Source: Candidatus Atabeyarchaeum deiterrae
Lineage (GTDB): Archaea > Asgardarchaeota > Atabeyarchaeia > Atabeyarchaeales > Atabeyarchaeaceae
Length of the DNA stretch: 64,000 bases
Direction: 5' to 3'
NCBI GenBank assembly: GCA_037310415.1
Contig: CP147780.1
Coordinates: forward strand, 544,001 to 608,000
Part shown: piece by piece, positions 14,007-23,772 of the stretch
Position numbering within the stretch: position 1 is the stretch's first letter
How the letters are laid out: each line of letters starts with the position of its first letter
Notes under the pieces: model-generated
Database searches by the model: none
What the model was told of the DNA's origin: nothing
Seen by the model: only the letters and a program-made list of their open reading frames with translations
Position numbers and translations under genes: made by a program

Positions 14007-17000
14007 TCAAGCTCTTTCCTTCAACATCAATCTCGGGGCGATTCCTAAACTTACCAGTTCCTGAAGCAGGAGTTTGAATGCGTATGACATCTCAACTCTT
14101 GAGATTCTTCCTTTATCACCACAAACTCTACAGTAATATCTGTCTCTGCTTCTATCATATGTGGCAAGCATACCGCAATTCTCGCAGACTAGAACTACGC
14201 ATTTGTCTGACTCTTCCAGCAACCTTTCCTTCAGAAGAAGCGTTGCACCGTGTCCAATTAGACAGTCTCTTTCCATCTCTCCGAACCGAAGACCGCCTTC
14301 CCTAGCGCGACCTTCAGTAGGTTGTCTGGTCAGTATCTGAACAGGACCTCTCGCCCGAGCATGCAGTTTATCAGCTACCATATGGTGAAGCTTCTGATAG
14401 TACACTACTCCTATGAACATGTCGACCTCAAACTTTTCGCCATTTACGCCACTATACATGACTTCTTTGCCATTGTACTTGTAACCGAGTTTCTGCAGTT
14501 GGTCATAGAGGTCTGATAGCTTCTCACCTGAGAAAGCTGTTCCGTCGACAACTTTTCCACCTAATGAACCGACCTTTCCGGCAATTGACTCTATGAGTTG
14601 CCCAATTGTCATTCTGGATGGGATCGCATGAGGGTTAATCACCAAGTCGGGAACGACTCCATCTTCTGTAAAAGGCATGTCTTCTTGAGGAACCAGTAGA
14701 CCGAGTACTCCTTTCTGTCCATGACGCGAAGCGAACTTGTCGCCTAGCTCCGGCACTCTCGGGTCCCGAACTTTGGTCTTTACCAAGCGGTTTCCTTCAA
14801 CCGTCTCACCGAGTATCACCGTGTCAATGATACCTGATTCCCCGTATCTCAGATTACTTGAGGTTTCTCTTCTAGTGGGGCTTGGCACTTCAAATTCCGT
14901 ATATTCCTCTAAGAAACGAGGGGGACTAGTCCTTCCTATCAATACGTCTCCGCCTTGTACGTCAGTCTCGGGTTCGATTATCCCATCTTCACTTAGGTGG
15001 CGGTAAACCTCTGCCGCGCGGTATCCTCTAACTGTTCGGTCAGGGATCTCGAAACGATCTTCCTGACCTCCTGGGTATTTTCTCTCCTCTGCTTCATAGA
15101 CACGGAAGAAGGTGGAACGAGCTAGCCCTCTTTCAACTGAGGACTTGTTCATTATTAGGGCATCTTCCATATTGTAGCCAGATAATGAGAGTATTGCCAC
15201 AACGAAGTTCTGTCCAGCGGGCCGCTTGTCGAACTGGATGGCGTCCATGGCCTTGGTTCGAACCATAGCCCTTTGAAGATAGTGAAGAATGTGGGATCGA
15301 GTATCGACTCGCAGCCGGTAGTTGGCGCCAAAAAGTCCCAATGCTTGTTTGGCCATGCCAGCTTCGTAGGTGTTTCTCGGAGACTGATTATGTTGGGGAT
15401 AGGGAATCATCGAGGCACATATGCCTAAGATAGCGGACGCCGCTATTTCCATGTAATTATGTTCGGATGTCAATGAGTCTGGTCCGATCGCCACGAACGC
15501 GTTCTCCTCTTCTTCAGCATCGAGATACTCCATAATCGCATTTCTGACGAGATCGCTGAATCTCCATTCGCGGTTTCTCAGTTTCTCGATGTGTTCGAGG
15601 GTAAGCTTTGGTCTTCCATTTTCTGCGATGATCACGGGGCGTCTAACTCTTCCTGCATCACAGTTGATTTGAATCTCACCAGATTCTCGGTAATAAGCAA
15701 TGTTTGTTTCATTGCTGATCTCCCCTCTTCTGCGGAGAAGGACTACCTGATTTCTGAATCGCTGCGGGTCATTGTGATAGCCGACCAGTCGGCCATTGAG
15801 GAATATTCTAGCTTCCTTTGCGGCATTGCTTTTTCTTGCTTCTTCGATTGACATTATCCCAAGATCTAGTATTTTCCCCTCAACTTGGCTGTCTTCAATT
15901 CCGACAGAGATGTAGGCCATCAATGCCAAGTTCTTGACGAGACCACAATTTGGTCCTTCTGGTGTCTCGCTCGGACATACTCTACCCCAGTGGGTTGGAT
16001 GAAGATCCCGCGCTTCGAAGTGGGGTTGGCTGCGACTTAGAGGCGAGATGATTCTTCTGAGGTGACTTAGTGCCGAAAGAAAGTTATTGCGGTCTAGAAG
16101 TTGGCTGACTCCAGCCTTACCGCCGACCCAGTTCCCCGTGGCAAGGGCGTGTCGCAACCTTTCCGTTATGACATCGGCTCTAACGGCAGTGTGGATACTC
16201 GGAACGCGACCACGTATCGCGTTTCTCTCAATTTGATACTTGATATCCCTGCACAAGTTAAGGAAAGCAACCCTGAATAGACTGACAAGAAGATCTCCAG
16301 CCAATTTCAATCTCTTATTGGCATAGTGGTCTTTGTCGTCAGATTCCCGTTTATGCAATGAAAGTTCGATTAAACGTTCGGCCATCTGGCCAAGATAATA
16401 CGCTTTCTTGAGTCTGGCATCTGAGCTAGTTCCGATATGTGGAAGAAGATACTTGTCGAGAATCTGTTCAGCACGCTTCTGGCGGTACTCCTTGGTCTGT
16501 CCAACGGCAACTCTGCGACCGACGTAGTCGAGGGCGTCATTCTGATCTGCTACCACATCAGCCTCGTGCAGGGTAGGAATAAGTTCGCGAACGACCTCTG
16601 GATCCTCGGAAACGGCTTCGCTTATCTGCTTATCAGTTACTAGCCCCAATGCACGAACTAGTATGGCTAATGGAATCTTACCAGGGACGGATGGAAATGA
16701 CAGACGAAGTGATCCGTCACGACGTCTCTCAAGTGTGACTGGTGCCCTGAATCCGCGGGAAGTTGAGAAAACCTTAGCTACGTGAGTATAAGCTCCTCCT
16801 GAACTCTCTTCGATCAGTATTCTATTTGAAGCCAAGTCTTCTTGTATCACGATCACTCTTTCGGAGCCATTGACTATGAAGTAGCCTCCAGGGTCGTTTG
16901 GATCTTCTCCAACCTTAATTAATTCCTCGGTCTGCATCTTGACCAGAAGACACTTGCTGGACTTCAGCATTATTGGTAGTCGGCCGATGTACTCCTTGGA

Positions 17001-17345
17001 AGGCTTGCTCTCTACTTCAATTCCTGTCCTCTCATCTTTGTGAACGAGAGTCATTTCAAGATAGACTGGTGCTGAATAAGTGAGGTTTCTGATCCGAGCT
17101 TCCATTGGGAAGATCTCTTTTGCAGACCCATCAGCTTCTTTAACAGTCGGTGCTCCAACCTCGATCTTGCCTAGCTTGATATAGTACCCTTCGATATCAG
17201 GCTCGATCTTTCCGACTTCATCAACGATTTGCTGAAGTCTATTCTCCACAAAATCGTTGTACGAATCCAAGTGCTGACGAGCTAATATTCCTTCGTTGAT
17301 GAAGGCTTGCATAACTACCCATGGGTCAAGAAACTCTTTACTCAA
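14007..17345 (-). CDS. rpoB: RNA polymerase subunit Rpo2 (B, unsplit)
   Basis: [23 protein letters not shown]; 1112 aa, no intein. Confidence 0.98.
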
Positions 17346-17376: not shown

Positions 17377-17628
17377 CTAATCTCTTGGGATGTATCTATA
17401 AAAAACTGCATACTCACCTGCTGTTTCACTTTTCCTCATTATCTTCACAATGTCACCCTTTTTCGCATTTATCGCAATCATGACGGGATCATCTATTTTG
17501 ATTAGTGGAAGCCACTCTGGCTGGATGTTATACTTCTCAAGCAGTTCCTTTTTCTCTTCCTCAGTGAGAAGAATGTGCTTTGGAACAATCTCGTGCTCAA
17601 TGAGCTTCTTTGGCTCTTGTGAAGACAC
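17377..17628 (-). CDS. rpoH: RNA polymerase subunit Rpo5 (H)
   Basis: HEIVPKH, LPLIKIDDP, KGDIVKIMRKSETAG. Confidence 0.96.
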   Translation of the reverse strand: MSSQEPKKLIEHEIVPKHILLTEEEKKELLEKYNIQPEWLPLIKIDDPVMIAINAKKGDIVKIMRKSETAGEYAVFYRYIPRD

Positions 17629-17692
17629 GTCGCTAGACCTCCGTCCATATCTTCAATTGATCTATCATCAATCTCGAATCGTTGTGCAGGTG

Positions 17693-17907
17693 TGGCGGGC
17701 CCGAGGGGAATTTCGGCATATCCTCTTGTAATATGCTATCGAACCCCCGGCCACCGGGTTTCATTACGCTACCCTTGGATGGTTTGTTCTCTCTGGCATT
17801 AGTCGACGTTTAAAAGCCTCACCCTCTGAGGAGCAGTTCACTCCTCTAGAGTCCGGCGCTATAGGCAGACACTGTTTCTTCCTTCTACCTGACTGAGCTA
17901 CGGGCCC
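17693..17907 (-). tRNA. tRNA-Lys(UUU) interrupted by four introns (22/23, 30/31, 37/38, 59/60), CCA encoded
   Basis: Removing 17861-17884, 17818-17852, 17760-17810 and 17710-17737 gives a canonical 77-nt cloverleaf; each intron has BHB geometry. Confidence 0.9.
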
Positions 17908-18034
17908 AAGCAGGCCTCATACACCTGTATTGTCTATGGATAAAATGAATTCCTTATATTCTTTTCTCCTCTTTGGGCGTCTCATTCTTCGAAGCTTCAT
18001 GACCAAAAAGACGACCTCGTCTTACCTTCTCAGG

Positions 18035-23620: not shown

Positions 23621-23772
23621 GCCCTGGTGGTGCAAGCCTTCTCCGAAGGTCCGAAGAAGACCACGAAGCGGCTAACATTTGGGTCTGTCACACCCAAGAC
23701 GCGGGTTCGAGAAAGATCACCGCAATGCCTGCTGACGGCATACGATGATTTTATAAAATCCCGCCCAGGGCG
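23621..23772 (+). tRNA. tRNA-Asp(GUC) with two non-canonical introns (14/15: 23635-23667; 59/60: 23712-23758)
   Basis: GCCCTGG/CCAGGGC acceptor, TGGGT-CTGTCAC-ACCCA anticodon arm, GCGGG/CCCGC T stem; inserts have 4+3 BHB spacing. Confidence 0.85.

Follow-up and report, generated by a model that had tools for sequence, protein, structure and literature searches.

A conserved tRNA-Lys(UUU) gene of Atabeyarchaeia-2 with four bulge-helix-bulge introns, two of which may be removed in a fixed order

Atabeyarchaeia-2 carries a gene for tRNA-Lys(UUU) that is divided into five exons by four bulge-helix-bulge (BHB) introns, and we put the probability at roughly 0.93 that this is the sole functional tRNA-Lys(UUU) gene of the organism, with its introns cut by EndA and its exons joined by RtcB. 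There is little doubt that the gene is real, and it is almost certainly functional. Its location is 561693-561907 of a single 2,756,679-bp contig, from which we analyzed a stretch of 64,000 nucleotides (G000:C1:544001-608000; “the window” in what follows). Neither the gene nor its set of four introns is new, as both were published for the Atabeyarchaeia-2 genome by Valentin-Alvarado et al. (Nat Commun 2024; PMC11291895). Supplementary Data 4 of that paper lists it as tRNA 34 of SRVP_Atabeyarchaeota_2_curated.FINAL (561907-561693, Lys TTT), with four tRNAscan-SE introns that start at 561884, 561852, 561810, and 561737 and end at 561861, 561818, 561760, and 561710, and with a tRNAscan-SE 2.0.12 Infernal score of 89.4 bits. 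Subtracting 544000 from these boundaries gives exactly those of the original prediction, which had been made by reading the letters of the window, and the coordinates of further tRNAs (for example, 243848-243938, 1238460-1238535, and 2410455-2410592) coincide with the same table. The novelty that the prediction had attached to a four-intron tRNA does not survive, given that this publication already contains the same gene at the same coordinates, along with its ortholog and further Asgard tRNAs with four introns. The main text of the paper reports 228 tRNA introns in three genomes, with several introns in more than half of the genes, and does not discuss this Lys gene. What we add to the published entry are comparative, uniqueness, enzyme, and splicing-order analyses.

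The 215-nt gene runs on the minus strand from 17907 to 17693 of the window. Its parts, together with a conserved upstream element, are given below; identities refer to the comparison with G001 and G002, two genomes from another genus of the same family.

17946..17967, minus strand: purine-rich upstream block of 22 nt, followed by ATATAA; invariant in the three species within a spacer that diverges
17885..17907, minus strand: exon 1 (23 nt), comprising the 5' strand of the acceptor stem, the 5' strand of the D stem, the D loop, and G22; 23/23 identical in G001 and G002
17861..17884, minus strand: intron 1 (24 nt) at 22/23, HBh' motif with H AGGU/GCCU and an h' of 3 bp
17853..17860, minus strand: exon 2 (8-nt micro-exon), A23-G30, comprising the 3' strand of the D stem, G26, and C27-G30; 8/8 identical in the three species
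17818..17852, minus strand: intron 2 (35 nt) at 30/31, H CGCC/GGUG, h' CUCU/AGAG, and an inner GGAG/CUCC stem
17811..17817, minus strand: exon 3 (7-nt micro-exon), G31-A37, with the entire anticodon UUU; 7/7 identical
17760..17810, minus strand: intron 3 (51 nt) at the canonical site 37/38, H CUUU/AAUG with a U-U mismatch, h' ACGU/GCGU
17738..17759, minus strand: exon 4 (22 nt), A38 to U59; 22/22 identical
17710..17737, minus strand: intron 4 (28 nt) at 59/60, full hBHBh' motif with H UUCG/CGAA and the T stem as h
17693..17709, minus strand: exon 5 (17 nt), comprising U60, the 3' strand of the T stem, the 3' strand of the acceptor stem, and G73; 17/17 identical
17693-17695, minus strand: genome-encoded CCA, within exon 5

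Joining the exons of 23, 8, 7, 22, and 17 nt across introns of 24, 35, 51, and 28 nt yields a 77-nt product that is identical to the one originally proposed and that ARAGORN accepts as tRNA-Lys(ttt), 77 bases long, with a regular cloverleaf. The spliced tRNA has a 7-nt anticodon loop (C-U-UUU-A-A) in which UUU occupies positions 34-36 between U33 and A37, a discriminator G, and an encoded CCA. Cutting at the bulge sites therefore restores a canonical cloverleaf, as is characteristic of archaeal BHB introns. The claim of a tRNA-Lys(UUU) with four introns and five exons is thereby confirmed.

Each BHB motif was laid out such that the two strands of helix H are the four bases that precede the 5' bulge in the exon and the four that precede the 3' bulge in the intron, and the cut was placed after the second base of each 3-nt bulge. 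In this layout, the H helices of introns 1, 2, and 4 form all four pairs (one of them G-U in intron 1), and that of intron 3 forms three of four here and in G002 and all four in G001, the missing pair being a mismatch of U33 with U. No intron lacks a flanking helix of 2 bp or more, as the h' helices measure 3, 4, 4, and 7 bp for introns 1 to 4. The outer helix h is more variable: it is essentially absent from intron 1, it corresponds to the 5-bp T stem in intron 4, and in intron 3 it comprises 7 bp, with the full anticodon stem, only once intron 2 is out. In intron 2, the 4-bp h' is followed by the extra GGAG/CUCC stem. The boundaries were tested in two ways: the mature sequence was aligned to the DNA in spliced mode with no use of motifs, and equivalent slides of the boundaries were scored. 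The alignment recovers the same four inserts, and among the slides that yield the same product, the ones with the best BHB motifs are those of the original prediction, an agreement that is far beyond chance. The alternative registers 36/37 and 38/39 for intron 3 were rejected, as their H helices are worse by eye and the slide scores favor 37/38. Strand and boundaries, which also match the published ones, thus stand as predicted, and so do the finer motif details, including the single mismatch in the H helix of intron 3 and the perfect UUCG/CGAA helix of intron 4.

Orthologs of the gene in G001 and G002 share 81-83% identity with it over the whole gene length, yet this figure conceals a sharp partition: all 77 exon positions are invariant in the three-way alignment, while identity amounts to 52-89% in the introns and 40-60% in the 20-nt flanks. 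Together with the status of the gene as sole copy and with the abundance of AAA codons (below), the identity of 77/77 exon positions shows that the gene is under purifying selection. Substitutions on the intron side leave BHB pairing intact in introns 1, 3, and 4. In intron 1, the H partner GCCU of this genome is replaced by ACCU in both G001 and G002, exchanging a U-G for a U-A pair; the H partner of intron 3 varies between AAUG, GAUG, and AAGG, the last of which gives the four pairs seen in G001; and that of intron 4 is CGAA or CGAG across the three species. Two further ideas about the introns were rejected. A C/D-box guide RNA within intron 3 was suggested by GUGAUGA at the intron end in G002, a motif that is absent here and from G001, and intron transposition within this genome found only chance matches elsewhere, of at most 19 nt.

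The invariant upstream block is a candidate BRE/TATA promoter, as judged from its sequence and conservation; relative to the mature 5' end, its ATATAA occupies about -52 to -47. Downstream, rpoH (83 aa, Rpb5 C-terminal domain; 17377-17628, minus strand) begins 65 nt after the end of the tRNA gene and is followed on the same strand by rpoB (Rpb2, 1112 aa, 14007-17345). No T-run terminator is present between the tRNA gene and rpoH, and a GGAGG precedes the GTG start of rpoH in all three species. Cotranscription of the tRNA with the RNA polymerase operon is possible. A 93-aa open frame with an ATG start (17450-17731 of the window, plus strand), which overlaps the 3' part of the tRNA gene in antisense, is almost certainly spurious.

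Neither a BLAST search with the mature sequence nor a genome-wide motif-free spliced-alignment scan, which is blind to split genes whose halves lie more than 700 nt apart, found a second Lys(UUU)-like gene in the genome. In the scan, the Lys(UUU) locus scored 126, followed by the Lys(CUU) gene at 320687-320799 with 107 and then by Arg tRNAs with at most 81, so that the closest match is the isoacceptor and not a second copy. AAA makes up 44% of the Lys codons in long open frames. The unspliced form of the gene is also found in DNA contigs of two public runs, one of which is possibly the source sample, and the locus is thus not an assembly artifact. No RNA run containing the locus was found, and two metatranscriptomes from the same study yielded no contig matching positions 17600-18000 of the window, a result that is uninformative on expression.

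The Lys(CUU) gene (G000:C1:320687-320799) has a single intron in this genome (22/23, 36 nt), and its counterpart in the sister genus (L024, G001:C1:304457-304624) has three, at 22/23, 37/38, and 59/60. At 59/60, the intron of the latter has a UUCA/UGAA helix free of mismatches, and it shows partial resemblance to intron 4 of Lys(UUU). The difference between the two Lys(CUU) genes is one of intron gain or loss between genera, or of exchange between isoacceptors.

The original prediction had also expected that standard scanners would miss the gene. This applies to ARAGORN, with and without its intron mode, and to Rfam cmscan at both gathering and E-value thresholds, none of which detected the unspliced gene; it does not apply to tRNAscan-SE 2.0.12, which finds the gene with all four introns. 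The misses are limits of ARAGORN and Rfam and not evidence against the gene. Genome-wide, the Rfam tRNA model exceeds its cutoff for only 16 genes. The 43 published tRNAs of this genome, 39 of which lie within 208-793 kb, or about one-fifth of the 2.76-Mb chromosome, include no Asp, Cys, Ile(GAU), Thr(CGU), Ser(CGA), or Ile2 tRNA (PMC11291895, Supplementary Data 4), and more hidden or heavily interrupted genes therefore probably remain. One sequence of this kind lies in the window itself (23621-23772, plus strand), where a tRNA-Asp(GUC) with two inserts, in the D arm and the T loop, can be discerned. Its BHB motifs are poor; ARAGORN takes many of its spliced versions as tRNA-Asp(gtc), and the Asp tRNA is absent from the PMC11291895 list.

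Could the inserts instead mark a decaying, non-functional tRNA gene, with Lys(UUU) supplied by another gene that is hidden, split, or permuted? The absence of Asp, Cys, Ile-GAU, and other tRNAs from the published list lends this idea some substance, as hidden genes evidently exist in this genome, and split halves more than 700 nt apart would escape our scan. However, a decaying gene is hard to reconcile with 77 exon bases that are identical in three species amid diverged introns and flanks, with BHB motifs maintained through substitutions, with a conserved promoter-like block upstream, and with a genome-wide scan that returned no other Lys(UUU)-like sequence, and we consider it very improbable. 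Three of the features that speak against our main reading, namely, the lack of an outer helix h in intron 1, the U-U mismatch in the H helix of intron 3 in this genome, and an intron count of three by R2DT versus four by tRNAscan-SE (the column “Total number of introns observed (R2DT)” of Supplementary Data 4, PMC11291895), would rather fit a gene in which only three inserts are true introns and the fourth is kept as an enlarged loop or removed by another route. Yet any insert that was kept would break either a stem (D or anticodon) or a loop (anticodon or T), so that all four must be removed for the cloverleaf to form. In addition, all four inserts keep BHB motifs in three species, the four-intron solution is the one scored highest by tRNAscan-SE, and for each of the four positions, other Asgard families provide examples of Lys tRNA genes with a BHB intron there. 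A gene with only three true introns is thus highly unlikely as well, and the evidence argues for a functional gene with four BHB introns.

The enzymes needed for the removal of these introns are present in the host genome, which encodes both EndA (PF01974 twice, with 103.9 and 70.4 bits) and RtcB (PF01139 once, with 582 bits). The two EndA genes are located at about 215.5 kb and 625.6 kb of G000:C1. Among solved structures, the first paralog is closest to the Aeropyrum pernix subunit 3P1Z_B (E value of 2e-46), and its Tyr, His, and Lys motifs can be recognized by eye. The second is located as follows:

L022:1192-1788, corresponding to G000:C1 ~625.3-625.9 kb: EndA paralog 2

In an alignment, paralog 2 has Thr at the position of the catalytic His of Methanocaldococcus jannaschii EndA and keeps the Tyr and Lys positions, which suggests that it is probably a structural subunit. 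Judging from these sequences, EndA of this organism probably combines a catalytic and a non-catalytic subunit in a heterotetramer. Such a pair of paralogs fits the pattern of crenarchaeal heterotetrameric EndA, which tolerates relaxed motifs at non-canonical positions.

A further claim of the original prediction was that the motifs of introns 1 to 3 draw on the same micro-exons, implying an ordered splicing pathway. The motif layout bears out the overlap between introns 2 and 3: C32-U33 are paired in the outer helix of intron 2, which extends to C32-U35 after removal of intron 1, and are also part of the H helix of intron 3. Moreover, the H helix of intron 2 uses C25-C28, of which C27-C28 also belong to the anticodon stem, that is, to h of intron 3. 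In the free thermodynamic ensemble, the H pairs of intron 4 reach probabilities of 0.7-0.95 in the primary transcript, while the H helix of intron 3 has essentially zero probability in every splicing state, a further point against our main reading. We took this to mean that a helix of 4 bp rich in A-U pairs is beyond the reach of thermodynamics without protein, and therefore turned to constrained folding: for each splicing intermediate of the three species, a protein-free nearest-neighbor model gave the free energy needed to impose each full motif. In this model, the intron 3 motif costs 13.2, 16.4, and 15.6 kcal/mol in the primary transcripts of the three species and only 6.8, 6.7, and 7.6 kcal/mol once intron 2 alone is removed. 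Intron 3 would acquire a good motif only after excision of intron 2 because intron 2 interrupts the anticodon stem and uses C27-C28 and C32-U33. In contrast, removal of intron 1 affects the cost of the intron 2 motif little or not at all (6.7 to 5.0, 9.8 to 7.5, and 7.4 to 7.5 kcal/mol). Constrained folding further suggests that no prior splice is needed for intron 1 in any of the three species, nor for intron 4 in this genome and G002, the picture for intron 4 being less clear in G001. The ordered pathway thus finds support in its second half, with removal of intron 2 before intron 3 being the only order that the model favors consistently across three species, whereas a dependence of intron 2 on intron 1 appears weak or absent.

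How strict such an order would be is another matter. It is conceivable that the four introns are real but removed in no fixed order, with a broad-specificity EndA that cuts relaxed HBh' motifs independently as the precursor changes conformation. In the primary transcript, nearby sequence suffices to form H and h' of every intron, and heterotetrameric EndA accepts motifs that lack one outer helix, an observation for which Marck and Grosjean (in 2003) are reportedly the source; the weak or absent effect of intron 1 on intron 2 in our model would fit as well. On the other hand, the intron 3 motif is 6-9 kcal/mol harder to form with intron 2 present in all three species, and the motifs of introns 2 and 3 compete for C27-C28 and C32-U35. 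We assign to unordered removal an appreciable probability, though one well under one-half. That excision of intron 2 (30/31) before intron 3 (37/38) is obligatory, and that the four positions are the apparent union of those found across the few sampled Asgard families (below), is a tentative reading that we rate just short of even. If it is true, a 7-nt micro-exon with the whole anticodon would be joined in a fixed order, and the gene would be a handy natural substrate for studies of sequential archaeal tRNA splicing. The idea that one intron must be out before the next BHB motif forms is itself already contained in the tRNAscan-SE 2.0 paper.

Taken together, we infer the following pathway for the maturation of this tRNA. 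Transcription, probably from the conserved TATA-like promoter about 50 nt upstream, would give a precursor of at least 215 nt, in which EndA would cut inside both 3-nt bulges of the four BHB motifs at 22/23, 30/31, 37/38, and 59/60. RtcB would then ligate the exons of 23, 8, 7, 22, and 17 nt to a 77-nt tRNA that already bears its CCA, and the introns would be released, presumably in circular form. Intron 1 (in the three species) and intron 4 (in this genome and G002) would be removed independently of prior splicing, and intron 3 would follow intron 2.

With the four introns already cataloged, the remaining interest of the gene lies in its role as sole source of Lys(UUU), in intron positions that are shared between genera and, in sets of three, with other Asgard families, and in a testable prediction of splicing order (intron 2 before intron 3) that bears on how EndA handles densely packed introns. 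No other prokaryotes are as closely related to eukaryotes as the group to which this organism belongs, and the tRNA genes of its lineage had previously been described as exceptionally interrupted. It is also worth recording that a reading of the raw sequence alone correctly recovered a heavily fragmented tRNA gene, including its 7- and 8-nt micro-exons.

The closest known relative of the gene is Lys(TTT) of Atabeyarchaeia-1 (519373-519589, the locus in G001), a direct ortholog with the same four intron positions (PMC11291895). Supplementary Data 4 of the same paper also lists two four-intron tRNAs of Freyarchaeia, Arg(TCT) and Ile2(CAT), and R2DT raises two more to four introns, Atabeyarchaeia-2 Trp(CCA) and Freyarchaeia Leu(GAG). 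These other four-intron Asgard tRNAs resemble the Lys(UUU) gene in having BHB introns at non-canonical sites of the D arm, anticodon stem, and T loop, but those of Freyarchaeia and Trp differ from it in isotypes and positions. The statement in the original prediction that archaeal tRNAs have up to three introns accordingly fits the literature before 2024 and not the later catalogs, which list four, or a 2026 preprint (10.64898/2026.10.13.758758), which describes up to five intervening sequences in one Asgard tRNA gene. Beyond the family of the window, the Lys(UUU) genes that we compared (L015, L018, L020, and L013) carry three of the four positions each, and among the families sampled, all four occur only in the window's own. 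In family f15, introns of lengths similar to those described here are found at 22/23, 37/38, and 59/60 (26, 51, and 29 nt, with 21 nt instead of 51 in G031), with a UUCA/UGAA helix by eye at 59/60, and in a genome of family f5 (G006) they are found at 22/23, 30/31, and 37/38, with the same CGCC/GGUG H helix at 30/31. All four positions thus exist elsewhere in the phylum, although the intron sequences are not alignable between families despite their common positions. Outside the Asgard archaea, the nearest parallel is provided by the Thermoproteales, whose multi-intron tRNA genes were reportedly treated by Sugahara in 2008. As in the Lys(UUU) gene, their BHB introns occupy non-canonical positions, some of them so close together that removal must be sequential; Pyrobaculum calidifontis, for instance, has 71 introns in 46 tRNA genes, with at most three per gene (tRNAscan-SE 2.0 paper). 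Thermoproteales possess a heterotetrameric EndA, and the two EndA paralogs found here probably form such a tetramer as well. Unlike the Lys(UUU) gene, the tRNA genes of Thermoproteales have a reported maximum of three introns each, and they belong to a different phylum, whereas the four introns described here are those of an Asgard archaeon from a mesophilic wetland habitat.
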